A stretch of 64,000 nt of DNA. It comes from an uncultured Thermoleophilia bacterium. Lineage in GTDB: Bacteria > Actinomycetota > Thermoleophilia > UBA2241. The notes below the pieces were generated by a model. The model was not told the origin of the DNA. It did not search any database and saw nothing but the letters and a program-made list of their open reading frames with translations. Positions 21,411 through 60,656 of the stretch are shown here, piece by piece. The position numbers and the translations under genes are program-made. How positions within the stretch are numbered: the first letter of the stretch is position 1; each line of letters starts with the position of its first letter. The stretch is taken from positions 656,225 to 720,224 of the forward strand of contig CAWBRS010000021.1 of NCBI GenBank assembly GCA_963791345.1, written 5' to 3'.

Positions 21411-21452
21411 GTTTCCTGTCTCGGGCCGCCGGGCGGCCGGTCGCGGTCGTGA

Positions 21453-21494
21453 CAAAGGCCCCTGACCGGCCGGCGGCCGGGTCAGGGGCCTTTG
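21453..21494 (-). terminator. 15-bp perfect hairpin between rpsG and fusA (attenuator/processing-type stem-loop)
   Basis: caaaggcccctgacc / ggtcaggggcctttg flank a 12-nt GC loop. On the transcript the stem is followed by only UUUG, so termination would be partial at best. Confidence 0.4.
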
Positions 21495-35228: not shown

Positions 35229-36006
35229 GTGGCGAAGCTCCCGCCGGCACCCGACCGCCCGTCTACACCCAGCCGCCCACCGGCGCCCAGCCGATACGGT
35301 CCGCGGCGACCCCGACGCTCGAGCGCCAGGGCGTGGGGCTGGCCGGAGGCGCTGCTCGGCGTCGTCGTCGGCTTCGGCCCCCAGGTCCTGCTCTACGTGG
35401 CGGCCCTGTACGGAGGCGCCCTCGAGACCGAGACGACGATCGCAGAGGTCACCCTCTTCAGCGCGGGCGTCGTCATCGTCTCCACCCTCGTCCTGTACGG
35501 ATGGCAGACCGCCGCCGCCTGGCTCTTCTCGCTGCGGATCGGCCGTCAGGGCCTTGCCGGCTGGGGTTTCGCCAGGCCGAGTGCGGCCTTCTTCTGGACC
35601 ATCCCCGTCGCCCTCGTGGCGAGCTACGCGGTCTCCGCCGTGCACGAGGAGATCGTCGAACCCCCCGCCCCAGGACATCGTCGAGCAGTTCCCGCGCACG
35701 GTCGCCGGCGGGGCGCTCTTCGTCGTCATCGCCGTGGTCTTCGCACCGCTCTTCGAGGAGATCTTCTTCCGCGGCTTCGTCTACAAGGGGCTCCGGAACT
35801 CCTGGGGCTGGTGGCCGGCGGCGCTCGGCTCGGCGGCCGTCTTCAGCATGGCGCACCTGCAGTTGACCGTCTTCGTGCCGATCTTCGCCCTCGGGGTCGC
35901 GCTCGCTTGGGTGTACGAGCGCACGGGGTCGTTGTGGACGAGCATCGCCATGCACGCGATCTTCAACGGGCTGGCCGTGCTCGTCTGGGCGCTGGGTGTG
36001 GCGTAG
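35229..36006 (+). CDS. CPBP-family intramembrane glutamic endopeptidase (CAAX protease/Abi), frame broken at a C-run (about 35661-35666)
   Basis: TM region ..AWGWPEALLGVVVGFGPQVLLYV.. is in the frame of ORF 35229..36320. The catalytic part ..FAPLFEEIFFRGFVYKGL..AAVFSMAHL..HAIFNG is in the frame of ORF 34912..36006. The 5' limit is uncertain because proline-rich ORFs lie upstream. Confidence 0.75.
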
Positions 36007-43323: not shown

Positions 43324-44523
43324 TTACTGCCCGGCCCACCAGCCGTCGCTCAGGGTGAGCAGGAAGGCGATGATCTGGTTCTCCTGGGTGGGGGTCAGAC
43401 CCAGGTCGCCCATCGTCGCCGTCTCGAGGTTGTCGGCCACCTCGGGCTCCGGCCAGCCCTCGCCGGGCACGTCGCGCGTGTTGTAGAAGTGGACGATGTC
43501 CTTGAGGGTCTTGAAGTAGCCGTTGTGACCGTACGGGGCCGTGTGGGCCACGTTGCGCAGGCTCGGCGTCCTGAACATGCCGTCGAACTGCGGGTTGGCC
43601 TCGACGCCGCCCGGCAGGTCGGCCGCCAGACCGTGGTCGATGTACTCGGCGCCGTCCGGGTTGAAGAGCGCCGGCAGCGTGAGGAAGGGACTCGCCCAGT
43701 TCTTGGGGATGCCGAGGTTGGCGAAGCGGTAGTCGCTGTAGAGGATCGGCTCGGTCGGCACGATGGTGCTGGCCTCGCTCGGGGGCAGTCCGCTCATCGG
43801 GTTCACGTGGCAGACCGAGCACTGCGCCGCGCCGTTGAAGAGCATCATGCCCATGCGTTCGTCGGCCGTGAAGGTCATCATCCGCGGGGGGCCGATCAGG
43901 GTCATGGCGTAGTCGTGCTTCGCGGTGAAGGAGTTGAGCTCGGTGCTCCGCTCGTAGGCGGCGATCGCCCCGACGATGCGGTCGTAGGCGCGGCGCACGT
44001 CGGTGAGCGACAGGCTGCGGCGACCGAAGACCGCCCTGAAGTCGTCGGCGTACTCCGACGCGGCGACACGCTTCACGACCGCCCGCCTGTTCGCCATGTT
44101 CATCTCGAGCGGGTTGAGGAAGGGCTCCTTCGCCTGCTCCTCGAGGGTCGGGGCGCGGCCGTCCAGGAACTGGCCGCCCACGTACGTCCCGAGCGTCTCG
44201 TCGAAGCTCCGGATCGGAGTGAACGAGGCGTACGCGGCACTCGGCGCGTTGCGAGCGCCGAAAAGACCCAGCACGGCGCCCTCGGAGACCGGAAGCAGGA
44301 TCTCCGGGTCGGCGAAGCCGGCTCCCGGGTCGTGGCAGCTGGCGCACGACTGCCCGCGCGGCGAGGACAGATCGGTGTCAAAGAAGATCTGCTCGCCGAC
44401 GGATGCCGGCGTCGGCGCCGCGCTCGCCACGGGGACCAGACACGCCGTCGCGAGCGCCACAAGACCGGCCACTACGACCAAACGTCCTCTCACAAAGACC
44501 ACCTTCCTCTTCTCGCCGCGCAT
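43324..44523 (-). CDS. Di-haem cytochrome c peroxidase (CCP/MauG family), secreted
   Basis: Conserved part of ORF 43324..44817 from MRGEKRKVVFVRGRLVVVAGLVALATA (signal). Two CxxCH motifs (CASCH, CSVCH). FRTPSLRNVAHTAPYGHNGYFKTLKDIVHFYN. Confidence 0.88.
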   Translation of the reverse strand: MRGEKRKVVFVRGRLVVVAGLVALATACLVPVASAAPTPASVGEQIFFDTDLSSPRGQSCASCHDPGAGFADPEILLPVSEGAVLGLFGARNAPSAAYASFTPIRSFDETLGTYVGGQFLDGRAPTLEEQAKEPFLNPLEMNMANRRAVVKRVAASEYADDFRAVFGRRSLSLTDVRRAYDRIVGAIAAYERSTELNSFTAKHDYAMTLIGPPRMMTFTADERMGMMLFNGAAQCSVCHVNPMSGLPPSEASTIVPTEPILYSDYRFANLGIPKNWASPFLTLPALFNPDGAEYIDHGLAADLPGGVEANPQFDGMFRTPSLRNVAHTAPYGHNGYFKTLKDIVHFYNTRDVPGEGWPEPEVADNLETATMGDLGLTPTQENQIIAFLLTLSDGWWAGQ

Positions 44524-44795: not shown

Positions 44796-44868
44796 TGGCG
44801 GGGACTAGGGGAGTCACACCCCTCTACACGGGTTTAGAGCCCGTGCTGATCCTTCCGATCGAGCCCCC
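44796..44868 (-). tRNA. pylT: Amber-suppressor tRNA(CUA) with tRNA-Pyl architecture
   Basis: Reverse complement GGGGGCT C GATC GGAAG GATC AG CACGGG CTCTAAA CCCGTG TAG AGGGG TGTGACT CCCCT AGTCCCC G CCA. 7-bp acceptor stem, 1 nt to the D stem, 4-bp D stem with a 5-nt loop, 6-bp anticodon stem, anticodon CUA, 3-nt variable loop, non-TPsiC T loop, G73, encoded CCA. Same strand as pylBCD. Confidence 0.85.
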
Positions 44869-44885: not shown

Positions 44886-45052
44886 CCGCGATGGCGCCCA
44901 GGCCGCCCGCCGGCGACCGTCTCGCGCAGGCAGCGGGAAGCGCGGGCGACGTCGTGACCATTGCGGCGCAGGCCCACATCCGCGTAGAGTTGCCCATCAC
45001 CCGTATGGCCCGACGTCGGCGCGAAGCGCGACCGGGGCCGCGGGCGTCCACG

Positions 45053-46126
45053 ATGCGAACGGGGGTACTCATGGGTGGCAAGGGACTGGGGTGGCTGCTG
45101 GCCATCGTCGGGGTCGTCCTCGTGGCGGCCGGGCTGGTCGTCATGCTGGTCGTCGTGCCGGGGATGAAGCAGCTGCCCGCCGACACCGACACCACGCGCA
45201 CGTACGAGGGCACGATGGCGTCCATGCTCAACCCGGCGACGTTCGAGATGATGACCGACCTGCCGATCGAGCTCGAGCGCCGCTTCTTCGTCGTCGAGAC
45301 CAGCGACGGCCTCGCCCTCGTCAAAGAGGAGCGCGCGATGACGAGCGGCGGCCAGCCGCTGCAGCAGGGCGTGAACCACTACTCCGTCGACCGCGTGACC
45401 ATGGAGTGGAGCGACGCCTACCCGGAGGAGTGGGCCGAGAACGAGGGCTTCTGGCCCCGCGAGGGCAACGTGATCGGCTGGCCGATGGACACCCAGCAGA
45501 GCGACTACACGGGCTGGAGCGACGACTACATGAGCACCGTGCCGCTGACCTTCGTCGAGGAGACGACGCACGAGCGCAGCGGCATGACGCTGTACAAGTT
45601 CACCTCGGCCAGCGACGCGCAGCCCATCGTCCCCGAGATGGTCCAGGGCATGGGGCTGCCCACCGAGCTGCCCAAGTCACAGCTCGCCCTCCTGCTCGGC
45701 GGCGTCGACCTCGGCCCCGCGGTCCAGGCACTGCTGCCGACGCTGCTCGAGCAGCTTCCGGAGACGGTGCCCCTCGGCTACTACTACGACTACGAGGGCA
45801 CGTACTGGGTCGACCCCGCGACGGGCATCATCGTCGACACCGAGAAGCGCGAGACGCGCACCGTCGGCTTGAGTCCGGACGGCATCGTGGGGACGGCTCT
45901 CGAGCTGCTGCCCGCCGAGCAGCTCGGCGCCCTGCAGGTGCCCATCCTGGACTACACCTACACGGCCACCGACGTCGCGGTCGAAGAGGCGAAGGCCGAC
46001 GCCGAGGACGCGGCCGGCATGCTGCAGCTCTACGGCATGACCCTGCCGCTGATCGGGATCGTCGCCGGCGCCCTTCTCCTGGTGCTCGGCATCGTGTTCA
46101 TCGCACGCAAGCCGAAGGCCGCCTGA
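45053..46126 (+). CDS. DUF3068-family (PorA-like) membrane protein
   Basis: C-terminal 357 aa of ORF 44003..46126 from MRTGVLMGGKGLGWLLAIVGVVLVAAGLVV.. N- and C-terminal TM helices flank a large extracytoplasmic domain. The upstream part of the ORF is antisense to the peroxidase gene. ATG 45071 is an alternative start. Confidence 0.75.
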   Translation: MRTGVLMGGKGLGWLLAIVGVVLVAAGLVVMLVVVPGMKQLPADTDTTRTYEGTMASMLNPATFEMMTDLPIELERRFFVVETSDGLALVKEERAMTSGGQPLQQGVNHYSVDRVTMEWSDAYPEEWAENEGFWPREGNVIGWPMDTQQSDYTGWSDDYMSTVPLTFVEETTHERSGMTLYKFTSASDAQPIVPEMVQGMGLPTELPKSQLALLLGGVDLGPAVQALLPTLLEQLPETVPLGYYYDYEGTYWVDPATGIIVDTEKRETRTVGLSPDGIVGTALELLPAEQLGALQVPILDYTYTATDVAVEEAKADAEDAAGMLQLYGMTLPLIGIVAGALLLVLGIVFIARKPKAA

Positions 46127-46176: not shown

Positions 46177-46218
46177 CCGAAGGGGCCGCCGGGCGTTCAC
46201 GCCCGGCGGCCCCTTCGG
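46177..46218. terminator. Perfect 19-bp hairpin between convergent DUF3068 gene and pylD
   Basis: ccgaaggggccgccgggcg ttca cgcccggcggccccttcgg, followed by ttctct on the plus strand. Confidence 0.55.
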
Positions 46219-46319: not shown

Positions 46320-47186
46320 TCAGGCGAGGGCCCGCGCCGCCATGACGGCGACGCCGATGGCGAGCGGCTCGTGGATGTGGCGCACGCCGAGCCGGGCCTG
46401 CGCCGCGCCCGTGAAGGCCGACGGGACACCGGGGACGGCGGCGATCGTGCGCGGCCCGACCTGCGCCTCGTCGATGACGGCCGGCGCCGGGGTGGCGTCG
46501 AAGACCAGGTCGACGCCGCGCAGGCCCTCGGCGAGCTCGACGCGCTCGAACGCCAGCCCCCGAGCCGCGGCCAGCGCGGCGCGCTCGCCGTCGGGTTCGA
46601 CCACCGAAAGGCGGGCGCCGCGGGCGAGGAGTCGGCCCGCGGCGGCGCAGCCCACGGGCCCGAGGCCGAGCAACAGCACCCGCCGGCCGGCGAGGCCGCC
46701 CGCGGCCGCCTCCAGCGCCGTCACGTAGCCGTGCGCCGTCGCCGGGTCGTCGTCGACGCAGCGTCCCTTACGGACGTTCACGGCGACGAAGCGGTGGTCG
46801 TCGGCCATGAAGAACACCTCGGCGCCGCCGTCGACCGCCTCCTGGATGCCGCGCACGTCGGCCTGGGCCGTCACCGTGGCCTTCCACCCCATGTGACGGA
46901 GGATGACGGCGACGCACTCGCTGAAGCCCGAGATGAGACCTTCACCGGTCGTGACCGGCACGCAGGCGAAGGCGGCGTCACTCCGAAGACCGGAAGCAGA
47001 CGCGGGAGAAGGGGCAGCGGCGGGAAGGGCTGCTGGGTGACCGGGGCTCGGGGCTGCCGCGTCCGCGGCCACCGTGCGGGCGGCGAGGGTGCGCAGCGTG
47101 AGGCCGGAGACCTCGACCAGCCCGCTCTCGAAGCGGAGGAGACCCGCCGTCAAGGCTCTGACGTCGTCCTCGGTCAGGCGGGTCAT
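46320..47186 (-). CDS. pylD: Pyrrolysine biosynthesis protein PylD (3-methylornithyl-N6-L-lysine dehydrogenase)
   Basis: 288 aa from MTRLTEDDVRALTAGLL.. in ORF 46320..48197. Blocks VPVTTGEGLISGFS, FFMADDHRFVAVNVRKGR, LLLGLGPVG and IHEPLAIGVAVM match remembered Methanosarcina PylD blocks. ATGA overlap with the pylC stop. Confidence 0.9.
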   Translation of the reverse strand: MTRLTEDDVRALTAGLLRFESGLVEVSGLTLRTLAARTVAADAAAPSPGHPAALPAAAPSPASASGLRSDAAFACVPVTTGEGLISGFSECVAVILRHMGWKATVTAQADVRGIQEAVDGGAEVFFMADDHRFVAVNVRKGRCVDDDPATAHGYVTALEAAAGGLAGRRVLLLGLGPVGCAAAGRLLARGARLSVVEPDGERAALAAARGLAFERVELAEGLRGVDLVFDATPAPAVIDEAQVGPRTIAAVPGVPSAFTGAAQARLGVRHIHEPLAIGVAVMAARALA

Positions 47187-48403
47187 GGCGCCTCCTGCGC
47201 GACGAGATCCAGCGTTTCGCGCCGCGCCAGGTCGCGGGTGACCTCGTCGGCGCGGGCCCGCGCCTCGGCGACCGTCGCGCCGGCGCAGATCAGCGTCGCC
47301 GACCACGAGGCGGCGCCGGGCGCGTAGTCGGTCAGGGCCTCGTCGGCGCCGTAGAAGCCCTCGACGAGGCGCAGCGGGCGGGCACTCCCCATGACGTGCT
47401 CGCCGAGCACGGCCAGGCGCCCGCCCGCGGCGTGCACGTGCTGGTAGACGCAGGCGGCGCGCGGCGCGCGGTCGAGCACGGGCGGCGCGCCGCGCGCGAC
47501 GCAGGCGACGAGGCCCTCGAGCAGGTTGACGCCGCTGGACCACAGGACCGCGGTCGGAGTCTGGCTGGGCAGCCGGGCGTCGATCTCGAGCAGCCGCGGC
47601 CCGTCGGGCGCCACCATCACCTCGACGTCCATCAGGCCGGTGAGGCCGAGGCCCTCGGCGAGCCGCACGGCGATGTCGTCGAGGGCCTCGAGCGTGCCGG
47701 CCGGGACGGCGCGCGACCAGTCGGCGGAAGCGGTCGGGGAGGCGGCGGCGGGCAGCGTGCCCGCCGCCGCCTCCCCGACCGGCGCCACGACGCGCTTGCA
47801 GTCGTAGCCCTCGTCGAACTCGAGCCCCGTCGCCTGCAGCGGCACCGCCCGGCCGCCCGCCGCGAGGACCTCGATCGACAGCGACGGCCCGGCCACGAAC
47901 TCCTCGACCACCACCTCGTGGCCGGCGCCGCTGAGACGCGCCCGTGCCGCGCTCAAGCTTGCCTCGTCGTCGACCACCGTGACGCCCTCGCTGCCGCTGG
48001 CCGAGGAGGGCTTGACCACGGCGGGGAAGCCGCACCCAGGCCACGCCCGCGGCCCGGCCACGCCGAGCTCGGCCGCGAGCCGGTTCGAGGCGAGCTTGGA
48101 CGCGGTCACCCGGTACGCGGCAAGGTCGAAGAGGAGCGGCACACCCCAAGCCCCCACGTGGGCGTCGAGCCAGGCGAGCGTCTCGTCGTCTTCGCAAGCC
48201 GGCAGCACCGCGTCACAGGCGCACAGGACGGAGCGACTCGTCTCCTCGTCGGCGGTCACGTCGAGCGCCACGACCCGGTCGGCCAAGCCCGCTGCCGGCG
48301 CCTCCTCGCGGCGGTCGACGAGGACGGTCTCGTACCCGGCCTTCCGCGCCAGGTAGACGGCCTCGGTCCCCTGCAGCTTGCCGCCGACGATCGCGAGCCT
48401 CAC
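47183..48403 (-). CDS. pylC: Pyrrolysine biosynthesis protein PylC (3-methylornithine--L-lysine ligase, ATP-grasp)
   Basis: 406 aa from GTG 48403 (GGGAGG upstream): VRLAIVGGKLQGTEAVYLARKAG.., LFDLAAYRVTASK, LEIDARLPSQTPTAVLWSSGVNLLE. Lies in ORF 47183..48643. Confidence 0.9.
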   Translation of the reverse strand: MRLAIVGGKLQGTEAVYLARKAGYETVLVDRREEAPAAGLADRVVALDVTADEETSRSVLCACDAVLPACEDDETLAWLDAHVGAWGVPLLFDLAAYRVTASKLASNRLAAELGVAGPRAWPGCGFPAVVKPSSASGSEGVTVVDDEASLSAARARLSGAGHEVVVEEFVAGPSLSIEVLAAGGRAVPLQATGLEFDEGYDCKRVVAPVGEAAAGTLPAAASPTASADWSRAVPAGTLEALDDIAVRLAEGLGLTGLMDVEVMVAPDGPRLLEIDARLPSQTPTAVLWSSGVNLLEGLVACVARGAPPVLDRAPRAACVYQHVHAAGGRLAVLGEHVMGSARPLRLVEGFYGADEALTDYAPGAASWSATLICAGATVAEARARADEVTRDLARRETLDLVAQEAP

Positions 48404-48455
48404 GCGGTCCGACCTCCCCCCGCCCGCCTCGGCGCCCCGCCGCTGACCCCGCGAG

Positions 48456-49565
48456 TCACGCCCGGGCCTCCCACGCCGCCCCCGGCCTGGCGACCTCGGT
48501 GCCGACCCCGCGGCGTGCCTCCTCGACCCATGCGGCGTAGGCCGCCGCGCCGGCGTGGCGCAGGCCGAGCCTGGCCAGGTGCGGCAGGACGCCGGCGACG
48601 GTGCGGTGACCTTCCTCGATGTCCAGCTCCGACTGAGAGACACCGGCGAGCCCCGTCGTCGGCGGCACGATCGAGGTGACGACGTTGGCCCCGGCCAGCA
48701 GACGGCGCTCGAGACCGCGTATGCCGTCGACGTCGAGCGAGGCGGGGATCAGACGGTCGGGCATCGCCAGCCGCATGACGGCGATGGTGCGCAGCTCGTC
48801 GCCGTCGTCCGGCGGCGGGGTCCCCGCCAGCGGCGTCCCCGCCTGCGGGACGAAGGTCATCACGCGCACCTGCTGCCAGCCGCCCGCGCGCATCGTGGCG
48901 ATGGATCGGGCGCGGTCGGCGACCGCGTCGCCGATGCCGGTGAGGAGGCCGTCCTCGACGAGGAGGCCGGCGGCGCGGGCCGCGGCGCGGGCCGCGACGC
49001 GCCGTGCGAACGGCTGGCCGACGCGCAGGCGCGCGTAGAGCTCCGACGAGTGCGTCTCCTGGTAGAGCGCGTACCAGTCGGCGCCGCGCCGCCGCAGCTC
49101 ACCGAGCACCTCGTCGTCGACGACTCCCGGCGAGACCATGACCGGGAGCCCGGTGGCCTTGCGCACGGCGCCGACCAGCTCGACGAGCCGCGCGGCGCCG
49201 TCTCGAAGGAGCACGGGGTCCTCGCCCATCGTCAGGTCGAGAAGGTCGACGCCCGAGCCGGCCAGGTCGCGGCAGATGGCGACGACCTCGTCGGGGCTCT
49301 TGCGGTACCGCGGGCTCTCGGGGTTGCCGACGCGGTAGTAGCAGAACGTGCACGCGTTACGGCAGAAGGTCGAGAAGTAGACGAAGCCGTAGAGGAAGAC
49401 GGCGTCGCCGAAGTGGCGTGTGCGCTGCTCGCGGGCGGCGGCGTAGAGCTCCTCGGCGCCCTCGTCGTCGGCGTCGAGGAGCCGCCCCAGAGCGGCCTCG
49501 CCGAGGGCACCGCGCTCGAGGGCCCGCGCGCACAGCTCGCGGATCTCGGCGACTGGGGTGGTCAC
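48456..49565 (-). CDS. pylB: Pyrrolysine biosynthesis radical-SAM protein PylB (methylornithine synthase)
   Basis: 369 aa from GTG 49565 (GGGAGGA upstream): ..FVYFSTFCRNACTFCYY (CxxxCxxC), DLTMGEDP, ALYQETHSSELYARLRVGQ, VRVMTFVPQAGTPL, RLIPASLDVDGI, GANVVTSIVPP. Lies in ORF 48456..49673. Confidence 0.9.
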   Translation of the reverse strand: MTTPVAEIRELCARALERGALGEAALGRLLDADDEGAEELYAAAREQRTRHFGDAVFLYGFVYFSTFCRNACTFCYYRVGNPESPRYRKSPDEVVAICRDLAGSGVDLLDLTMGEDPVLLRDGAARLVELVGAVRKATGLPVMVSPGVVDDEVLGELRRRGADWYALYQETHSSELYARLRVGQPFARRVAARAAARAAGLLVEDGLLTGIGDAVADRARSIATMRAGGWQQVRVMTFVPQAGTPLAGTPPPDDGDELRTIAVMRLAMPDRLIPASLDVDGIRGLERRLLAGANVVTSIVPPTTGLAGVSQSELDIEEGHRTVAGVLPHLARLGLRHAGAAAYAAWVEEARRGVGTEVARPGAAWEARA

Positions 49566-49791: not shown

Positions 49792-50454
49792 TCAGCGGAA
49801 CTCGAGGACGTCGTCTACAGGGCGCCGCGGTCCGCGCCGCGGGCGTCCGGCCGGGCGCCCGACGGGCACGACGGCCACCAGGCAAGCGGGGGCTTCGACG
49901 CCGAGCAGCTCCTCGATCGCCGGGGCGGCGATCACCGGGCCGGTCATCCAGCAGCTCCCGTAGCCCATCGCGTGGGCCGCCGTGCAGAGGACCTGTACGG
50001 CGGCGCCGATGCTCTGCAGGTCGGGCCGCTGGCGCAGGCGGTCGTGCTCCTCCCGCGAGAGCCCGCGGAGTCGCAGCAGCTCATCGCCGCGTGACTCGTA
50101 GGGGAGAACGAAGACGGCGATGACCACGGGCGCGGCGACGAAGAAGGTCGCGTACGCCCTGATCGCCTTGACGTCGGCGGCGCGGCCCGCGCACTCCGGC
50201 CAGGCCGCGACCTCGTCGAGCGCCGCGTCGACGGCCGTCGCCATGGCACGGCGGGTGGCCTCGTCCTCGACGGCCACGAAGCGCCAGCACTGAGCGTTTC
50301 CCGCGTTCGCGGCCCGCGTCGCGCAGGCCACCATGGCGCGGACGTCGTCGCGCGGTACCGCGTCGGGCAGGAAGCGCCGCACGCTGCAGCGCCCCTCGAC
50401 CGCAGCGGAGAGGCTGACCCCCTCGAGCAAGTGCCCACAGGCCGTCTCGTCCAT
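49792..50454 (-). CDS. Nitroreductase family protein
   Basis: 220-aa ORF ..RCSVRRFLPDAVPRDDVRAMVACATRAANAGNAQCWRFVAV..GYGSCWMTG.. The ATG lies 7 nt after a TAGCAT hexamer, so a leaderless mRNA is possible. Confidence 0.85.
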   Translation of the reverse strand: MDETACGHLLEGVSLSAAVEGRCSVRRFLPDAVPRDDVRAMVACATRAANAGNAQCWRFVAVEDEATRRAMATAVDAALDEVAAWPECAGRAADVKAIRAYATFFVAAPVVIAVFVLPYESRGDELLRLRGLSREEHDRLRQRPDLQSIGAAVQVLCTAAHAMGYGSCWMTGPVIAAPAIEELLGVEAPACLVAVVPVGRPAGRPRRGPRRPVDDVLEFR

Positions 50455-50494
50455 GCCGGGGATGCTACCAGAGTAGTCAACGGACGCGGCGGAG

Positions 50495-50565
50495 CCCCGA
50501 GATCACGACGGGGCCTGCGACCCCGAGACCGCGACGGGGCTACCGGTTCCGAGGGCGCGACGGGG
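50495..50565. repeat. Three direct repeats, period 26 nt (ccccgagaYcRcgacgggg), upstream of the nitroreductase gene
   Basis: ccccgagatcacgacgggg at 50495, ccccgagaccgcgacgggg at 50521, ttccgagggcgcgacgggg at 50547. Each has ccccg/cgggg inverted ends. Confidence 0.8.
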
Positions 50566-50594
50566 CGGGCGGCCCGGTGGGCCGCCCGCCCCGT
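50558..50594 (-). terminator. Perfect 17-bp hairpin downstream of the MoaD-like gene
   Basis: gacggggcgggcggccc ggt gggccgcccgccccgtc, 25 nt after the stop at 50620. Confidence 0.5.
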
Positions 50595-50619
50595 CGTCCC
50601 TCGCTTCGCGCCGACCGCC

Positions 50620-50889
50620 TCAGCCGCCGGAGATCGGCGGCACGACCTTCATCGTGTCGCCGTCCTCGAGCACCGTAGAGAGCCCCTCGCGGGCGTTGAT
50701 GTTGCGCCCGTTGAGGAACACGCCGGCCCACATGCGGCCGTCGTCGCGGAAGATCCGCGGCCTGAGCCGCGGCTCGACGGCGACGGCCTGCTCGAGGGCC
50801 TCACCGACGGTCGCCGCGTCACACTCGACCTCGCGGCGACCGTCGGCGGTCGTCATCCCGACCGGCAGCTTGACGCTGACCCCTGCCAT
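50620..50889 (-). CDS. MoaD/ThiS-family ubiquitin-like sulfur-carrier protein
   Basis: 89 aa from MAGVSVKLPVGMTTADGRREVECD.. to ..DTMKVVPPISGG (C-terminal Gly-Gly). C-terminal part of ORF 50620..51114. Confidence 0.8.
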   Translation of the reverse strand: MAGVSVKLPVGMTTADGRREVECDAATVGEALEQAVAVEPRLRPRIFRDDGRMWAGVFLNGRNINAREGLSTVLEDGDTMKVVPPISGG

Positions 50890-50893
50890 GCGC

Positions 50894-51392
50894 CTAGCCC
50901 TGCAGCTCCCGGTCCATCTTGTCGACCTTGAGGTCGACGGCGAGGACGTGCGGGTTCTGGCAGAAGGCGATGCACTGGGGCTCGCCCTCGCAGAGGTCGC
51001 ACTTGAAGGCGACCTCCCTCTCGGGGTGCTCGTGGATGACCCCGGTCGGGCAGACCTCGTAGCACTCGCCGCAGTTCGTGCACTTCTCTTCGTCGACGAC
51101 GAGCACGTAGCCACGGACGAGCTCGCCGTTCTTCGCCTTCGAGGGGTAGTCGCCCTTGACCCGCAGCGTGATCTCGCGGGTCACGATGGCGTCCTTGGGG
51201 CAGGCGTCCTGGCACTTGGCGCAGGCGGTCTGCAGGCAGGTGTGGCCCTTGATCTGCCCCGTCGTCGGGTTGACCTCGACTGAAGAGGCGGGCGACCGAG
51301 GGCCGGTAGGCGCCCTCGTGCTGCGCCGAGCAGGCGAGCTCGCACATGTGGCAGCCGGTGCACTTCTTCGAGCTGATCATCACGTGAGGCAT
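50894..51392 (-). CDS. 4Fe-4S dicluster ferredoxin-type electron-transfer subunit, frame broken once (about 51280)
   Basis: MPHVMISSKKCTGCHMCELACS.. (ORF 50853..51392). After one extra base it continues VEVNPTTGQIKGHTCLQTACAKCQDACPKDAIV..EEKCTNCGECYEVCP..KCDLCEGEPQCIAFC (ORF 50894..51184). Confidence 0.8.
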
Positions 51393-51428
51393 GGTCTTCT
51401 GTCCCTTCGTCTCTCGTGGACCGGCCGG

Positions 51429-53244
51429 CTAGAGGCGCACGTCGATGCCGAGCTCGGAGAGCTTGGCCTCGGAGGGGACGCCGGAGGCGTCCCAGCCGCG
51501 CTGCGTGTAGTACTCGGCCATCATGGCGTTGAACCTGTCTTCGCCGATCGCCTGACCCGCCGACGGGCCGTCGGCGAAGGCGCCCGACTTCGCGTAGAGC
51601 TTCTTCGGCAGGTCGTCCTTCTCGACGCCCTCGCGCAGGTTGAACAGGCGGCCGAGGTTCCAGACGCGCTCGCCGATCTCGAGGACCTCGTCCTCGGTGA
51701 AGTCGCGGCCCCACAGCTCCTTGAAGAGGATCACGATCTGCTCAGGCGTGATCGCCCAGAAGTCGCACCAGATGCCGCTGAACTTGATCGAGCTCATGTT
51801 CTGCCCGATGAAGCCCTTGGAGGAGTCGCCGACGACGATCTGCTCGACCTTGTCGGGGTCGAGCTCGTTCGGCGGCGAGGTACCGGCGACGAGCTCGTCG
51901 CCGGTGGGATAGGTGCGCATGTGGCAGCCGCCGCGGTCGCTGGTCGCGTAGCCGACGCTCATGCCGAACGACCCGCGCGGGTCGTAGCCGGGGAGCTCGA
52001 GGCCCTTGACCTCCATGGCGAGCTCGGGATGGCCGTACTTGGCGGCCAGGGCACGCGTGCCGAGGGCGAGCTCGGCGCCGATGCCTTCACGCTGCGCGAT
52101 CAGCGTCGGCGCCGCGACGTAACCCTCGACCTCGCCGAAGCGCAGACCGAAGTCCTTGATGCCCTTCTCGGTCAGGTCCATGGCGAGGCCGACGACGGCG
52201 CCGCTCGAGATGGTGTCGAGGCCGAGCTCGTCGCAGAGCTCGTTGAACTTCATCAGGGCGTCGATGTCGTCGATGCCGCAGTTGGCGCCGCAGAGGGCGA
52301 TGGTCTCATACTCAGGACCCTCGCCGCGGACCTCCTCGCCGCTCGAAGGTCGTGGCGTGGAAGTTGCGGCAGCCGATCGCGCACTGGTAGCAGGCGCGCT
52401 TCTTGGTGCGGATCTTCTGGAACGACTCGGAGTTGATCTTCGCGGCGCCCTCGAAGGAGCCCGCCGACCAGTTGCGGGTCGGGAAGGCGCCGCCGCCATT
52501 GATGACGTCGACCAGCACCGGCGTGCCCTCTTCGTGCGCCCAGAGGTTGTCTTCGGTGAGGATGTACTCCTCGTGCATCTTGTAGATGAGGTCGAGGAAC
52601 GCCTTCGCGTCGCCCACGGGGACCGAGCCGGTGCCACGCACGACCACGGCCTTGAGGTTCTTGTCGCCCATGAGGGCGCCGTGACCGCCACGGCCGGCCT
52701 TGTGGTACTGGTCGGTCGAGATGCAGGCCCAGGGGATCTTCGCCTCGCCGGCGGGGCCGATGGAGAGCGTCTTGGCGTCGGGGTCGACGTCCTTGCGCAT
52801 GGCCTCCTCGACCGCGGAGGTCTTCATGCCCACGTACTTGTCGGCCGGGCGGAACTCGACGACGTCGTCCTTGATGACGACGACCGTCGGCTTCGCCGCC
52901 TTGCCCGTGATGATGACCGCGTCGTAGCCCGCGAACTTGAGCTCGGGCGCGAACGAGCCGCCGACGTAGCTGTCGGTGTAGATGCCGGTCGTCGGGCTCT
53001 TGCATCCGACCACGAGGCGCGACGCCGTGGTCACGCCGGTGCCCGCGAACGGCCCCGTCATCAGGATGATGGGGTTCTCGGGCGCCCACGGGTCGACCTT
53101 CGCCGGCACCTCCTGCCACATGTAGCGCAGCAGCAGACCCTTGCCGCCGATGTACTGCTCGGCCCACTCCATGTTCAGCGGCTCGACGGCCGTCGTGTCG
53201 GCGCTCAGGTCGACCCTGAGCACGTTGCCCTTGTAGAAGTCCAA
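51429..53244 (-). CDS. aor: Tungsten/molybdopterin aldehyde:ferredoxin oxidoreductase (AOR family), frame broken once (about 52341)
   Basis: N-terminus MDFYKGNVLRVDLSADTTAVEPLNMEWAEQYIGGKGLLLRYM.. up to ..ACYQCAIGCRNFHATTFE (ORF 52312..53244). Continues GEEVRGEGPEYETIALCGANCGIDD.. to ..ELGIDVRL (ORF 51429..52691). Total about 605 aa. TAG stop. Confidence 0.9.
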
Positions 53245-53868: not shown

Positions 53869-55143
53869 TCACAGGATGCCGAAACGCTCGGGCTTCAGCA
53901 GGGCCAGGTCGACGGACGGTTCCAGCCCGTCGGCGACTTCGGCCACCAGCTTGCCGGTCACGGGACCGTACATGATGCCGTTCATGTTGTGGCCCGTCGC
54001 CACCACGAGATTGTCGTAGGCTGCCGCTCGCCCGACGATCGGCAGCCCGTCGGGCGTCATCGGGCGCAGCCCGCGCCAGAGCGCGGTCGGCGCCGCCGTC
54101 TCGACCCCGGCGAAGTAGCGGCCTGCGCCGCGGCGGATGGCCCCGACGCGGTTCGTGAGCACGCGGTCGTTGATGCCCGAGAGCTCCAGCGTGCCGGCGA
54201 ACCGCAGACCGTCGCCGAACGGCGTCACGCAGGCGTGGCCCTCGGGCAGGTAGAGGGCGAGATCGGCCGGCACGCCCTCGGGGCGCGGCACGGTGACGCT
54301 GTAACCCTTCGCCGGCTGGAGGGGAAGCGACACGCCGAGGCCGCGCGCGAGCCGCCCGGACCAGACGCCTGCCGCGAGGACCACCGTCTCGGCCCGCAGC
54401 ATGCCGTGCGTCGTCATGACACCGGTGACGCAGCGGCCGGCGCGCGTGAAGCCGAGCGCTTCTGTCGCGGTCAGCACGGTCGCACCCAGGTCCTCCGCCG
54501 CACGGGCCAGCCCCCGGGTGAGCTTGAGCGGGTCGACGTGGCCGTCCTCGGCGGTGAAGACGCCACCGGTCACGTCGGGTAGCGCCGCCGGCACGCACGC
54601 GTGCACGGCCGCCGAATCCCAGACCTCGGCCTCGACCCCGAACGACTCCTTCATCGGGGCGGCGCCGGCCGCAGCCGCGTCGAGCGCCGCCTGGGTGAGG
54701 TACAGGCTGAGGATCCCGGTGTGCTTGTAGTCGGCGTCGACCACGCCCGACTCACAGACCTCCTCGAACGCCTTCAGCCCCTCGACGCCGAGGGCGCGCA
54801 GCACCGGCATCCCGCGCCGCATGCGGCTCTCGCGGGAGGCCGCGACGAACCCCAGCAGCCAGCGCGCGAGCGCCGGGCTGGGCCGCGGCCTGATGTACAG
54901 GGGGCTCGAGCTGTCGAGCAGCCATTTCACCCCTTGGCCGAGCACTCCCGGGGAGGGCAGTGGGTACGGGTCGCTCGGCATCACGAGACCGGCGTTGGCG
55001 TAGCTGCTGGCGCCCACTGGGCAGACCGCCTCGTCGCGCTCGATGAGCGTGACCTCCCTGCCGGCACGCGCCAGGTAGTAGGCGCACGAGGCGCCGATGA
55101 TGCCCCCGCCGATCACCAGGACATCGACTTCTCTCTCAGACAT
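53869..55143 (-). CDS. FAD-dependent oxidoreductase (DAO family: D-amino-acid / amine dehydrogenase-like)
   Basis: 424 aa from MSEREVDVLVIGGGIIGASCAYYLARAG.. in ORF 53869..56010. GGAGG lies 9 nt upstream of ATG 55143 (ATG 55149 is an alternative). ..VVATGHNMNGIMYGPVTG.. Confidence 0.85.
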   Translation of the reverse strand: MSEREVDVLVIGGGIIGASCAYYLARAGREVTLIERDEAVCPVGASSYANAGLVMPSDPYPLPSPGVLGQGVKWLLDSSSPLYIRPRPSPALARWLLGFVAASRESRMRRGMPVLRALGVEGLKAFEEVCESGVVDADYKHTGILSLYLTQAALDAAAAGAAPMKESFGVEAEVWDSAAVHACVPAALPDVTGGVFTAEDGHVDPLKLTRGLARAAEDLGATVLTATEALGFTRAGRCVTGVMTTHGMLRAETVVLAAGVWSGRLARGLGVSLPLQPAKGYSVTVPRPEGVPADLALYLPEGHACVTPFGDGLRFAGTLELSGINDRVLTNRVGAIRRGAGRYFAGVETAAPTALWRGLRPMTPDGLPIVGRAAAYDNLVVATGHNMNGIMYGPVTGKLVAEVADGLEPSVDLALLKPERFGIL

Positions 55144-56429: not shown

Positions 56430-57620
56430 TCACGCCGGCGTGACGACGTCCTCCGACGGCGTGGCGTCGGCCCCGTCATGCGACCCGCTGTCGGTCACGA
56501 CGACGCTGTGGCCGACGGCCCAGCTCACCGTCACCTCAGGACCGACGACGGCGTCGACGCCCTCAGTGCCCGCCTGCACCCGGACCACCGCCGTCGCCCC
56601 GCCGTCGAGATCCACGACGTACTTGCGGTCAGACCCCAGGTAGATGAGCTCGCGAAGGCGCCCGGACAGCCGCGCGACCGCCGCGTCGTCGGCGGCGGGC
56701 CCGTCGCCGGCTCCACCCTGCCGGATGCTCATGCGCTCCGGCCTGATGACGACGGCCGCACTGTCGCCCGAGGAGAGCCCGACCCTCTCGCCGGCGCGTG
56801 CCGGTACACGCACGGCAGGGCCTTCGGCACGCGCGATGCACGGGTACGGCTCCGACTGCAGCGTGCCGCGATAGATGTTCGAGTCGCCAACGAAGTCGGC
56901 GACGAAGCGTGAGACCGGCCGCTCGTAGAGGTCCTCGCCGCTGCCGATCTGCTCGATGCGGCCCTCGTTGTAGATCGCGATGCGGTCGCTCATCACCAGT
57001 GACTCCTCCTGGTCGTGCGTCACGTACACGACGGTCACGGCGAGCTGGCGGCTGATGCGGATGACCTCGAGCTGCAGCGCCTCGCGGAGCTTCTTGTCGA
57101 GGGCTCCCAGAGGCTCGTCCATGAGGAGCAGCTGGGGGTTGAAGCTGAACGATCGCGCCAGGGCGACGCGCTGCTGCTGGCCGCCGGAGAGCTGCTTCGG
57201 GTAGCGGTCCCCGAGCTGCTCGAGGCGCACGAGACGAAGGGCCTCGCGGACCCGCTCCTTCATCTGCGCCTTGGGAACACGCCTCATCGAGAGCGGGAAA
57301 CCGACGTTCTCGGCGGCCGTCATGTGCGGGAAGAGGGCGTAGTTCTGGAAGACCATGCCGATGTCGCGCTTGTAAGGCTGGACCTTCGTCAGGTCGCGGC
57401 CGTCGAGCACCACCGTGCCGACGTCGGGCTTGATGAACCCGCCGATGATACGCAGGGTCGTGGTCTTGCCCGAACCCGACGGGCCGAGCAGAGTGACGAA
57501 CTCACCGGGGGCGACGTCCAGCGAGACGTCGTCGACGGCCCGCAGGTCGCCGTAGAGCTTGGTCACGTCGTGCAGCGACAGGGCGCCCTTGGTCGGGGCG
57601 GTACGTTCTTCGTTCGACAT
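56430..57620 (-). CDS. ABC transporter ATP-binding protein (PotA/spermidine-putrescine-type)
   Basis: 396 aa from MSNEERTAP.. in ORF 56430..57818. GPSGSGKTT, LSGGQQQRVALAR, LLLMDEPLGALD, and a C-terminal TOBE-like domain. Confidence 0.88.
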   Translation of the reverse strand: MSNEERTAPTKGALSLHDVTKLYGDLRAVDDVSLDVAPGEFVTLLGPSGSGKTTTLRIIGGFIKPDVGTVVLDGRDLTKVQPYKRDIGMVFQNYALFPHMTAAENVGFPLSMRRVPKAQMKERVREALRLVRLEQLGDRYPKQLSGGQQQRVALARSFSFNPQLLLMDEPLGALDKKLREALQLEVIRISRQLAVTVVYVTHDQEESLVMSDRIAIYNEGRIEQIGSGEDLYERPVSRFVADFVGDSNIYRGTLQSEPYPCIARAEGPAVRVPARAGERVGLSSGDSAAVVIRPERMSIRQGGAGDGPAADDAAVARLSGRLRELIYLGSDRKYVVDLDGGATAVVRVQAGTEGVDAVVGPEVTVSWAVGHSVVVTDSGSHDGADATPSEDVVTPA

Positions 57621-57634
57621 CTGCGCCACGGATC

Positions 57635-58425
57635 TCACTTCCCTCGTTTGCCAAGGTTCCGAGCCAGCAGCGCACCGGCCAGGAGCACGATCGTCAACGC
57701 CGTCAGCATGCCCGCGAGGGCGGCGATCGTCGGATCGATCTGGCTGCGCACCACACTCCACATCACGACCGGCAGCGTCCGCACGAAGCGGACTGGACAA
57801 GAAGATCGAGACGACCACCTCGTCCCACGACTCGATGAAGGCGAAGAGCGCCCCCGCGATCGACGCCGGGCATGATCAGCGGGAGGGTGATCTTGAAGAA
57901 CGTCCGGAACGGGCCGGCACCCAGGTTCTGCGCCGCCATCTCCAGGTTGCGGTCCAGCGTCTGGAGACTCGCGGCCACGTTGACCACGACGAGGGGGATC
58001 CCCAGGGCGGCGTGGGCGACGACGAAGCCGAAGAGCGTGCCCTGGATGCGCCAGTCCACGAAGACCAGGTAGGTGCCCACGGCGACGATGACGATGGGCA
58101 CGATCATCGGGCTCAGGATCAGCGCGGTCACGGCACTCTTGAAGGGGAAGCGCCCGCGCATGAGCCCGAGCGCGGTGAGCGTGCCGAGCACGGTGGCGGT
58201 AAGGGTCGCGAGGAGCGCGACCTGGGTGCTGGTCCAGAGGGCGTCCGTCCACTGCGGGCTCTCGAAGAAGTTGCGGTACCACTGCAGGCTCAAGTCGGGC
58301 GGCGGGAAGCGCAGCGAGCTGAGCGACGAGAACGACATGATGATGACGAGGACCGTGGGGAGGATGAGGAAGATGGCGATCAGCACGACCACGGAGATGA
58401 GCAGCGGGTGCGGTCGGCGATTCAT
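57635..58425 (-). CDS. ABC transporter permease (PotC-like), frame broken twice (about 57861 and 57788)
   Basis: MNRRPHPLLISVVVLIAIFLILP..AAQNLGAGPFRTFFKITLPLIMPGV (ORF 57763..58425). Continues IAGALFAFIESWDEVVVSIFLSSP (frame of ORF 56430..57818). Continues FVRTLPVVMWSVVRSQIDPTIAALAGML..KRGK (ORF 57635..58453). Confidence 0.8.
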
Positions 58426-59342
58426 TGGCCGATCTCCACGCCCAGCACGTCACCGAGCCGGACCACGCGGGTGCCGATCCACAGCAACGCCAGGGTCACG
58501 AGCAGCAGGACGACCCCCATGGCGCTCCCGACGCCGAACTGGAGCTGGCGGCTGACCATGTCGACGACGAGCACGCTGTACATGGTGTTCGCCGGGCTGC
58601 CGAGCAGGGCGGGAGTGATGTAGAAGCCGATCGAGAGCACGAACACGAGCAGGCTCCCCGCGAAGACACCGGGCAGGCTGAGCGGCCAGAAGACCCTGAC
58701 GAAGGCGCGCCAGGGGCGCGCCCCGAGACTCTCGGCCGCCGGCATGAGATCCGGGTCGATCCGCGTCATGACGGCGTAGATCGGAAAGACCATGAACGGC
58801 AGAAGGATGTGGCTCATGCCGATGGTCACGCCGAGGTCGTTGCGCATCAGGCTCAGCGCCTCGTCGATGAGCCCCAGGCGTTGAAGCGCTGAGTTGATGA
58901 CCCCGCTGTCCTGGAGCAGCACCGTCCACGCGTAGGTGCGCACGAGGATGCTGGACCAGAACGGCAGCAGCACGAGGCCGCCCAGCACGGCCGTCATCCG
59001 GAAGCCCGAGCGCAGCATCACGTAGGCGTACGGGTAGGCGAGCAGCAGCGTGGCGACGGTGACGATGGCCGAGGTGCGAAGGGTGGTCCAGAGCACGCGC
59101 ACGTAGATCTCGTTCTCGACGAAGATCCGGTAGGTCTCGGGGCCAGGGTCGGTGAAGCTCCGGTAGATCATCCCGCCGAGCGGGATCAGGAAGAACGCGG
59201 TGAGGAACGCGAGGCCCGGGACGATCGTGACCGCCCAGGCGTTGAAGCGCAGGCGGGCGGGGCGCGCTGCGCGCGCCCCGCCGGCCTTGCCTTCACTCCC
59301 CGGCGCCGGCTGCGGCGCGGGCTGGGTTACTGCTGGACCCAA
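58422..59342 (-). CDS. ABC transporter permease (PotB-like)
   Basis: Conserved part of ORF 58422..59621: ..AWAVTIVPGLAFLTAFFLIPLGGMIY..AAESLGARPWRAFVRVFWPLSLPGV.. No ATG or GTG lies in frame after the SBP stop; TTG 59342 is proposed, so the start is uncertain. Confidence 0.78.
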   Translation of the reverse strand: MGPAVTQPAPQPAPGSEGKAGGARAARPARLRFNAWAVTIVPGLAFLTAFFLIPLGGMIYRSFTDPGPETYRIFVENEIYVRVLWTTLRTSAIVTVATLLLAYPYAYVMLRSGFRMTAVLGGLVLLPFWSSILVRTYAWTVLLQDSGVINSALQRLGLIDEALSLMRNDLGVTIGMSHILLPFMVFPIYAVMTRIDPDLMPAAESLGARPWRAFVRVFWPLSLPGVFAGSLLVFVLSIGFYITPALLGSPANTMYSVLVVDMVSRQLQFGVGSAMGVVLLLVTLALLWIGTRVVRLGDVLGVEIGQ

Positions 59343-60394
59343 TTCTGCCAGTCGGGGTTGAGGGTGCTGTAGTTCTCGCCCCACCAGACGTCGTCGAAGC
59401 CGACGGCCGTGTCGACGTACGCCGTGGGAAGTCCTGACGCGATCGCGGGGTCGACCTTCGGGATCGCATTGATGTTGGGAGGCCCGTAGTTGATGAAGTT
59501 GCTGATCTCGGCGCTGTTCTCGGCCGAGGTCATCCAGGCGATGAGCTGCATCGCCGCGTCGATGTTCTTGCAGCCTTTGGGGATCATGAGGTAGTCGGCG
59601 GTCAGGATGTGCTGGTCCCACATGATCTCGATCGGTGCGCCCTCCTCCTGAGCCTCACTCAGGCGACCGTTCCAGCTCATCCCCATGCTCACTTCACCGT
59701 CGGCAAGGAGCTGGGCCGACTGCGCCCCGGTATCCCACCAGACGATCTGGTCCTTGATCGTGTCCAGCTTCCTGTAGGCGCGCTCCATGTCCAGAGGGTA
59801 GAGCTCCTCGGGAGCGACGCCGTCAGCCAGCAGGGCGATCTCAGGGAGACCACCGCTCAAGTAGTTGTAGCAGCCCCGCTTGCCGGGGAACTTCTCGAGG
59901 TCGAAGAAGTCGGCGAAGCTCGTGGGCACGTTGCCGTTCAGCTTGTCCGGCCGATAGCCGAGGACCACGGAGTAGGCGATGACCGGGACGCGGTAGCCGG
60001 TGGTGGCGAAGACGTCCGGCTGGAGCTCATCGAAGGGGATGACGGCCGGGTCGAGCGGCTCGCACAGCTCCTCGAACTCACCGATGGCGAAGTCGTTGCC
60101 GACGTCGACCACGTCCCACGTCACGTTGCCCGACTCCACCATCGCCTGGATCTTGGCGTAGTCGGTCGGCTCGTCCTGGATGACCGTGATGTTCGGGTTC
60201 GCCGCCATGAACGGATCGATCCAGGCCTGCGTCTGAGCCTCCTGGAAGGTGCCGCCATAGCTGCAGAAGACGATCGTCGCTTCTTCCTGCGCCGCCGTCT
60301 CTTCGCCGTCTCCCTCGTCCCCACATCCCGCCACGATGCCCAGAGCCAGCACGAAGGCAAGCACGACTGCGATGGCCCTACCCCAATCACGCAT
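59327..60394 (-). CDS. ABC transporter substrate-binding lipoprotein (PotD/PotF-like)
   Basis: 355-aa ORF with lipoprotein signal MRDWGRAIAVVLAFVLALGIVAGC. SD AAAGGGGAG. Confidence 0.85.
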   Translation of the reverse strand: MRDWGRAIAVVLAFVLALGIVAGCGDEGDGEETAAQEEATIVFCSYGGTFQEAQTQAWIDPFMAANPNITVIQDEPTDYAKIQAMVESGNVTWDVVDVGNDFAIGEFEELCEPLDPAVIPFDELQPDVFATTGYRVPVIAYSVVLGYRPDKLNGNVPTSFADFFDLEKFPGKRGCYNYLSGGLPEIALLADGVAPEELYPLDMERAYRKLDTIKDQIVWWDTGAQSAQLLADGEVSMGMSWNGRLSEAQEEGAPIEIMWDQHILTADYLMIPKGCKNIDAAMQLIAWMTSAENSAEISNFINYGPPNINAIPKVDPAIASGLPTAYVDTAVGFDDVWWGENYSTLNPDWQNWVQQ

Positions 60395-60656
60395 AGCGAC
60401 TCCCCTTTCTGGTCACACTCGGAGTCGGCAGTTCGGGCCCGCTGGCGCCGCGCCGGCGAGCGACGCGGCTGAGCCGAGACCGATGCCGACTCAAGGTCTA
60501 CCACTCGGGCCCCGAACGAGGCCGCATGACGTGCACGCCAGCCTGCGTTCGAATGATGCCGAGCACACTACTCACCCGCAGGGACAGACGTCAAGGGTCG
60601 TAGGTCAGGCGCGCGCTCGTCCGACGGTCCAGAGGGAGTACTCCTGCCGCAGGCGC

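Follow-up and report, generated by a model that had tools for sequence, protein, structure and literature searches.

Does a set of pyrrolysine (Pyl) biosynthesis genes in a high-GC actinobacterial genome belong to a working system for decoding TAG as Pyl, when no Pyl-tRNA synthetase gene is found near it? The question is raised by a 64-kb stretch of contig CAWBRS010000021.1 from an uncultured Thermoleophilia bacterium (the window, by which we mean the whole stretch analysed), in which pylB, pylC and pylD stand side by side and a tRNA-Pyl gene, pylT, lies downstream. Judging from sequence, we put the probability at roughly 85% that this region represents the biosynthetic half and the tRNA of a bacterial-type Pyl system. 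Very probably, pylBCD and pylT are part of a working system whose synthetase and client genes would be encoded elsewhere in the genome. The genes in question are the following.

48456..49565, minus strand: pylB, methylornithine synthase, a radical SAM enzyme (TIGR03910 and PDB 3T7V)
47183..48403, minus strand: pylC, 3-methylornithine--L-lysine ligase, ATP-grasp (TIGR03909 and PDB 4FFL)
46320..47186, minus strand: pylD, 3-methylornithyl-N6-lysine dehydrogenase (TIGR03911, PF21455, PDB 4J43/4Q39)
44796..44868, minus strand: pylT, tRNA-Pyl with a CUA anticodon (ARAGORN)

All three enzymes exceed the cut-offs of the corresponding NCBIfam equivalog models: PylB scores 444.4 bits with TIGR03910 (cut-off 348.2), PylC 321.8 bits with TIGR03909 (248.3) and PylD 187.2 bits with TIGR03911 (150.05). 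The NCBIfam scores of PylB with the paralogous families HydE (101 bits) and BioB (81 bits) are far under its TIGR03910 score. Pfam recognised Radical_SAM in PylB (57 bits), PylC-like_N in PylC (PF21360; 27.2 bits, cut-off 27) together with ATP-grasp domains, and PylD_N in PylD (PF21455; 101 bits). In a search against all PDB sequences, the top match of PylB was Methanosarcina barkeri PylB (3T7V; 3e-89, residues 16-344) and that of PylD was M. barkeri PylD (4J43; 4e-28), with the PylD entry 4Q39 likewise matched; the sole match of PylC at the 1e-10 threshold was M. barkeri PylC (4FFL; 3e-45, in two stretches). The CxxxCxxC motif of PylB that binds the [4Fe-4S] cluster (C68-RNA-C72-TF-C75) aligns with that of 3T7V, and the NAD-binding Rossmann motif GLGPVG of PylD aligns with GLGKVG of 4J43. 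The window's PylC carries an insert of about 34 residues (~209-242) that M. barkeri PylC lacks, and PylD has an Ala/Pro-rich insert at residues ~35-70. The genes are full length and their catalytic motifs are present.

The three genes adjoin on the minus strand in B-C-D order, with a gap of 52 nt between pylB and pylC and with the pylC stop codon and the pylD ATG start overlapping as ATGA. The start codon of pylB is GTG, preceded at 6 nt by GGAGG, and a GGAGG-type ribosome-binding site stands upstream of all three starts. The GC content of the pyl region is 0.76, and at third codon positions (GC3) the pyl genes exceed 0.9, matching the rest of the contig. A scan for consensus promoters and terminators between 44.6 and 50.7 kb found none, as is expected at such GC content. 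An intact pylB-pylC-pylD operon had been proposed in a first-pass annotation of the window, and the equivalog scores and the best PDB matches bear this proposal out. The motifs quoted there are all present in the translations and the ATGA overlap is confirmed by the junction sequence. The Methanosarcina strings given there for comparison are nearly identical to the PDB sequences, the single difference being TPTVVYY (PDB) versus TPTAVYY (first pass). As a description of the locus that annotation was right about pylBCD; it overlooked the tRNA-Pyl gene and did not remark on the absence of pylS from the window.

The tRNA-Pyl gene lies downstream of pylD on the same strand, with one opposite-strand gene between them. 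Its product shows the marks of a tRNA-Pyl: a single base separates the acceptor stem from the D stem, the D-loop has 5 nt, the anticodon stem 6 bp and the variable loop 3 nt, and the discriminator base is G. CCA is encoded, and the minimum-free-energy fold is a cloverleaf (-35.7 kcal/mol). Rfam at the gathering threshold reported tRNA-Trp alone and not pylT. Locus L002, from one of the window's closest relatives, has exactly the same pylT sequence. When 10 distinct Thermoleophilia pylT sequences are compared, pairing holds in 99.1% of cells and six pairs have changed on both sides, a covariation score reached by none of 500 shuffles. Compared with the majority, the window's pylT differs on both sides in two anticodon-stem and two T-stem pairs and has C-G instead of G-C as the sixth acceptor pair; all five changes retain pairing. 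Since the helices are kept through compensatory changes, pylT is under structural constraint.

To see which organisms share this block, we scanned public genomes for PylB relatives, taking one genome per species. About 30 metagenome-assembled genomes (MAGs) labelled Thermoleophilia, Actinomycetes or Actinomycetota were found, with PylB 64-92% identical to that of the window; PylB of Firmicutes, Desulfobacterales and archaea is at most 59% identical. Judging by the sample names, most of these relatives come from soils, peat and sediments. No representative genome exceeds 92% PylB identity, the closest relatives lying at 91-92%, and the shared 12 kb of L002 and the window are 89% identical at the nucleotide level; the window comes from a species different from the representative genomes. 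A total of 78 PylB sequences were placed in a neighbour-joining tree, in which the Thermoleophilia-assigned loci were L001-L029, L058 and the window. All 29 Thermoleophilia-assigned PylB fall into one clade with no outsiders, the window grouping with L001 and L002, and the sister group consists of Desulfobacterales and Thermincola-type sequences. By this phylogeny the locus is a bacterial-type pyl cluster.

The conservation extends to the genes upstream of pylB:

49792-50454, minus strand: nitroreductase-family gene, upstream of pylB (NCBIfam)
50620-50886, minus strand: MoaD/SAMP-like gene (NCBIfam)
50894-51392, minus strand: polyferredoxin gene, frameshifted in the window (NCBIfam)
51429-53244, minus strand: aldehyde:ferredoxin oxidoreductase (AOR) gene, frameshifted in the window (NCBIfam)

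About 28 Thermoleophilia MAG species show synteny over the block made up of the AOR, polyferredoxin, MoaD-like and nitroreductase-family genes, pylBCD and pylT, and in several of them it is found on contigs of 0.3-1.5 Mb. In relatives, as in the window, leuD and an IPMDH-like gene precede the AOR module. Exceptions are L028, which has no such module upstream of pylB, and L027, which has no nitroreductase gene. We regard the genes at 49792-53244, on this comparative evidence, as the syntenic context of the pyl block. The pyl locus most likely entered the Thermoleophilia clade once and was then inherited vertically at a fixed site.

The host itself was placed at class level with RpoB encoded on the same contig. 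Among the matches listed, the best are from Solirubrobacteraceae, Solirubrobacterales and Gaiellales MAGs (67-71% identity); none from other Actinomycetota or from Firmicutes exceeds 61%. On the strength of these matches together with the locus synteny we assign the host to Thermoleophilia, in agreement with the high-GC actinobacterial host suggested at first pass.

A few MAGs with other labels also carry related genes. L028/L122 (CAVTJJ010000002), L120 and L284 (JBLMXT01) come from Zixibacteria- or Deltaproteobacteria-labelled MAGs whose pyl genes are nearest to the Thermoleophilia versions; PylB of L028, 66% identical to the window's, falls inside the Thermoleophilia clade, and the Deltaproteobacteria-labelled MAG also has a Thermoleophilia-like gene for dimethylamine methyltransferase, mtbB. 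The labels probably reflect mis-binning or mislabelling rather than transfer.

If the window holds one half of a Pyl system, where is the other half? In most Thermoleophilia loci pylT follows pylD directly, and a tRNA-Pyl gene is attached in nearly all loci scanned. Most relatives have pylSn about 1.1 kb past pylT and pylSc a further 2-4 kb away on the opposite strand. In L004, for example, PylSn scores 118 bits with TIGR03912 (cut-off 51) and PylSc (16537-17511, minus strand) 310 bits with TIGR02367 (cut-off 178), and the locus also contains a B12-type radical SAM gene and a gene for a methyltransferase-cognate corrinoid protein. With an alignment of Thermoleophilia PylSc sequences as query, the public genome collection yielded more than 60 MAG species of Thermoleophilia or Actinomycetota that carry pylSc. 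Among them are the MAGs of L002 and L001, in which pylSc resides on separate contigs, L089 and L093, respectively. The gene order in L089 is UppP, amidase, pylSc, aminotransferase, corrinoid protein, radical SAM, pylSn; pylT and pylBCD are missing from this contig, and it shares no gene with the window. A membrane-protein gene between pylD and pylT is common to the window, L002 and L058. The simplest reading is that an ancestral contiguous locus was broken between pylT and pylSn in the window's sub-lineage, and from the two closest relatives we infer that the synthetase of the window's genome is encoded elsewhere.

The likely clients of the system emerge from the same contigs. In L098, the gene adjoining pylSc, when read through a TAG, is mtbB (TIGR02368, 467 bits; cut-off 369). 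Three MtbB queries of the L098 type led to 77 loci (L241-L317), nearly all in Thermoleophilia or Actinomycetota MAGs, and TAG occupies the Pyl site in all 118 tblastn alignments that span this position. Thermoleophilia MAGs often have several copies of mtbB per genome; the closest relative, SMAG_U16054, has three with the TAG (L249 2778-4163, L261 103-1467 and L300 6001-7380). Standard gene callers truncate mtbB at this TAG in Thermoleophilia MAGs. Among confident open reading frames (ORFs) of the window, 46 end in TGA, 13 in TAG and 7 in TAA, and secY and several ribosomal protein genes are among those ending in TAG. TAG is an ordinary stop for about a fifth of genes, and Pyl insertion therefore competes with termination, which fits descriptions of other Pyl-using bacteria.

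The stop codons of the synthetase gene itself are also worth recording. Of 35 Thermoleophilia pylSc genes (L081-L143), 19 end in TAG, 15 in TGA and one in TAA, compared with about 20% TAG in the window; pylSc of the closest relative, in L089, ends in TGA. The TAG stop of pylSc could denote a Pyl-dependent C-terminal extension of the synthetase or simply shared ancestry.

Taken together with the established pathway, family membership suggests how the system would work. PylB would convert L-lysine to (3R)-3-methyl-D-ornithine, PylC would ligate the latter to the epsilon-amine of a second lysine at the expense of ATP, and PylD would oxidise the ligation product, which would cyclise to pyrrolysine. 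The CUA-anticodon tRNA would be provided by the downstream pylT. PylSc and PylSn, the cognate corrinoid protein and TAG-containing mtbB genes would be encoded elsewhere on the chromosome, as in the two closest relatives, an ancestral locus of pylBCD, pylT, pylSn, radical SAM, corrinoid and pylSc genes having been broken at pylT in this sub-lineage. The role of the system would probably be Pyl-dependent demethylation of dimethylamine, and perhaps of other methylamines.

Several observations weigh against this interpretation. The 64 kb contain no pylSc, pylSn, methylamine methyltransferase gene (mtbB, mttB or mtmB) or corrinoid gene. In tblastn searches of the window, M. mazei PylRS (the Pyl-tRNA synthetase) and Thermoleophilia PylSc and PylSn from related loci gave nothing below E = 0.7, and Thermoleophilia MtbB gave no match. 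NCBIfam models applied to confident ORFs between 36.9 and 64 kb detected no pylS, methyltransferase or corrinoid family, and a scan of the window for stop codons with coding-like GC3 on either side returned ordinary gene junctions only. Synteny with all relatives stops exactly at pylT: the genes past it (34.4-44.8 kb) have no counterpart in the pyl loci of relatives, and the L002 contig terminates there. Because L002 ends at exactly this place, pylT marks a rearrangement or an assembly break point. The placement of pylS and mtbB elsewhere rests on relatives whose PylB is just 91-92% identical to that of the window.

These observations lend themselves to another explanation, namely that the locus is an orphaned, decaying remnant: pylS and Pyl decoding would have been lost, leaving pylBCD and pylT as relics or as a source of free pyrrolysine or methylornithine for another use. 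The absence of pylSc and pylSn from the 44.8 kb downstream of pylT and the 14.4 kb upstream of pylB would agree with such a loss, as would the break in synteny and the several frameshifted neighbour genes. The window has about five frame errors of a single base. In addition to AOR, which has one extra base at ~52343 relative to L002, and the polyferredoxin gene, which has a net extra base at 51277-51281 (neither indel lying inside a long homopolymer), frames are split in a CPBP-family protease gene (35229-36006, plus strand) and an IPMDH/isocitrate-dehydrogenase-like gene (62266-63271, minus strand). The gene fusA for elongation factor G (19331-21455, minus strand) is likewise divided into overlapping ORFs in different frames, 19557-21455 and 19331-20191, which correspond to model positions 3-445 and 445-689, respectively. 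Since the gene of an essential translation factor would hardly be a pseudogene, the disruptions are most likely assembly indels, and the frameshifts are not evidence of decay. By the same token, pylBCD are indeed intact amid disrupted genes, as had been pointed out in the first-pass annotation, but with fusA split and the indels being of single bases this is no sign of selective retention. Against the idea of a remnant stands the state of the two closest relatives, in which pylBCD-pylT likewise stands apart from pylS and yet an intact pylSc is retained in both; one close relative has pylSn and a corrinoid gene beside pylSc, and one has the three TAG-containing mtbB genes. Full-length pylB, pylC and pylD with their catalytic motifs, and a pylT identical to that of L002 with all its helices maintained, are also hard to square with decay. 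We therefore consider a remnant improbable.

A more distant alternative is that the three enzymes are PylBCD paralogues serving secondary metabolism, making a methylornithine-containing natural product and having no part in genetic-code expansion. In its favour, radical-SAM and ATP-grasp tailoring enzymes abound in Actinomycetota, and no synthetase is nearby. It sits poorly with scores that lie above the equivalog cut-offs for all three proteins and far above paralogue families, with a tRNA-Pyl gene attached to the operon in nearly all Thermoleophilia loci scanned, and with pylSn and pylSc adjoining in most relatives; no genes for nonribosomal peptide synthetases, polyketide synthases or ribosomally synthesised and post-translationally modified peptides occur among the annotated neighbours, and we find the proposal very hard to credit. 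Finally, faulty assembly or binning might have attached a pyl segment of foreign origin (e.g. from a Firmicute or a deltaproteobacterium) to an actinobacterial contig, as the indel errors, the synteny break at pylT and the end of the closest relative's contig at the same gene might suggest. This is highly implausible: the pyl genes, with a GC content of 0.76 and GC3 above 0.9, resemble the remainder of the contig, about 28 Thermoleophilia MAGs, Mb-scale contigs included, have this locus behind the same series of upstream genes (leuD, IPMDH-like, AOR onward), and non-actinobacterial PylB is no more than 59% identical. The reading of the region as half of a working, physically divided Pyl system is thus the one we carry forward.

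The remaining features of the window surround this pyl block. Two lie in the interval between pylD and pylT:

45002..46126, plus strand: PgfA-like/DUF3068-type membrane protein gene, between pylD and pylT (NF053601, 133.6 bits; cut-off 160)
46182..46213, no strand assigned: GC-rich perfect hairpin between convergent pylD and the PgfA-like gene, read from the sequence

The PgfA-like protein scores below its family cut-off, and the window, L002 and L058/L084 are the only Thermoleophilia pyl loci with the gene at this place; it does not belong to the Pyl machinery. The arms of the hairpin are GGGGCCGCCGGGCG and CGCCCGGCGGCCCC, enclosing a TGAA loop. It is a probable two-way transcription stop, to judge from its place between convergent genes, and the consensus terminator scan missed it because it lacks a T-run.

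Further neighbours lie beyond the two ends of the block:

43324-44440, minus strand: MauG/MbnH-like dihaem peroxidase-family gene with a signal peptide, directly downstream of pylT
~53869-55131, minus strand: D-amino-acid dehydrogenase/ThiO-like FAD oxidase gene, common to the window and L002
55179-56300, minus strand: class III/NDMA-type alcohol dehydrogenase gene, common to the window and L002

Past pylT, the window encodes, along with the MauG/MbnH-like dihaem enzyme, LOG-family and GNAT proteins, a DEAH helicase, MTAP and the CPBP protease. On the other side, a PotABCD-type polyamine ABC transporter operon (56430-60412, minus strand) is missing at the corresponding place in L002, where the alcohol dehydrogenase gene comes immediately after an EamA-like transporter gene (60657-61742 in the window). 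The nitroreductase-family protein matches BluB weakly (57 bits, cut-off 150). Two candidate recoding events in the AOR module were rejected. The split of AOR in the window is due to a +1 indel and not to an in-frame Pyl or selenocysteine codon, the two halves being one open frame in relatives. A read-through fusion of AOR, via TAG, with the ferredoxin is not supported by conservation of either the TAG stop or in-frame spacing: in 28 loci the AOR stop is TAG in 17, TGA in 8 and TAA in 3, and the spacing to the ferredoxin gene is in frame in 15.

How new is a Pyl system in such a host? The first-pass annotation held that a high-GC Gram-positive would be an unusual or new lineage for the trait, and this part of it was not sustained. 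Guo et al. 2022 (PMC9630628) count 81 bacterial genomes that encode PylRS, of which two are from Actinobacteria, and a 2025 review repeats this. In Ellenbogen et al. 2023 (PMC10805028), Actinobacteriota MAGs from Stordalen Mire express Pyl-encoding mttB and mtbB, the most active Actinobacteriota genera being Bog-752 and RBG-16-64-13. Stordalen MAGs (bog_752, palsa_647, palsa_645 and fen_672) are among our own pylSc and mtbB matches. In GTDB, the genus RBG-16-64-13 belongs to class Thermoleophilia. With these reports and more than 60 MAG species carrying pylSc, the lineage is largely one already known for Pyl, and the claim of novelty largely fails. The Pyl trait in Actinomycetota is already on record, if thinly, and the window adds a further species and the split arrangement. 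Our literature search found no paper describing a Thermoleophilia pylBCD-pylT locus, and a search combining pyrrolysine or mtbB with Thermoleophilia returned nothing specific.

Pyl decoding is usually associated with methanogens and with a few Firmicutes and Deltaproteobacteria. The locus and its relatives suggest that it is common and position-conserved in an uncultured Thermoleophilia clade. On its own the present locus is a modest gain, with no new lineage or mechanism; the wider Thermoleophilia Pyl reservoir with its many mtbB paralogues merits more attention than any single locus. We see about an even chance that this high-GC clade, whose samples come mostly from soils, peat and sediments, constitutes a large and scarcely described bacterial reservoir of Pyl decoding, in which the pyl locus is inherited vertically at a fixed site beside AOR-ferredoxin genes, genomes carry several TAG-containing mtbB, TAG ends about a fifth of genes, and pylBCD-pylT has become unlinked from the synthetase in the window's sub-lineage. 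Such a picture bears on the identity of methylamine consumers in these habitats: if it is true, Thermoleophilia become candidate dimethylamine consumers there. It would also make them a source of GC-rich PylRS/tRNA-Pyl pairs, and may thereby offer new pairs from high-GC hosts.

Among systems already described, those of the Stordalen Actinobacteriota MAGs and of the Actinobacteria counted by Guo et al. share phylum and trait with the window. In their accessible portions PMC10805028 and PMC9630628 deal with methyltransferases or PylRS and do not describe the pylBCD-pylT locus, the AOR link or the split arrangement. The biochemical reference is M. barkeri, whose PylB, PylC and PylD (3T7V, 4FFL and 4J43) are matched over nearly their full length, with the radical-SAM cysteines, the ATP-grasp core and the Rossmann motif conserved. 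The archaeal proteins lack the Ala/Pro-rich inserts of the window's PylC and PylD, and their hosts differ in that PylRS is fused and full-length and TAG stops are few. In arrangement, the comparison is with the cluster of Desulfitobacterium hafniense, Acetohalobium arabaticum and Desulfobacterales, ordered pylT-pylSc-pylB-pylC-pylD-pylSn. In the window, whose host has a GC content of about 70%, pylT follows pylD rather than leading the cluster. The Thermoleophilia pylSc is on the opposite strand, several kb away past radical-SAM and corrinoid genes, and in the window's sub-lineage pylS is unlinked altogether and a membrane-protein gene separates pylD from pylT. What the two types share is the core of the system: the three biosynthetic enzymes encoded in B-C-D order, the unusual shape of tRNA-Pyl(CUA) and, in the Thermoleophilia relatives, the division of the synthetase into separate pylSc and pylSn that is typical of bacteria.

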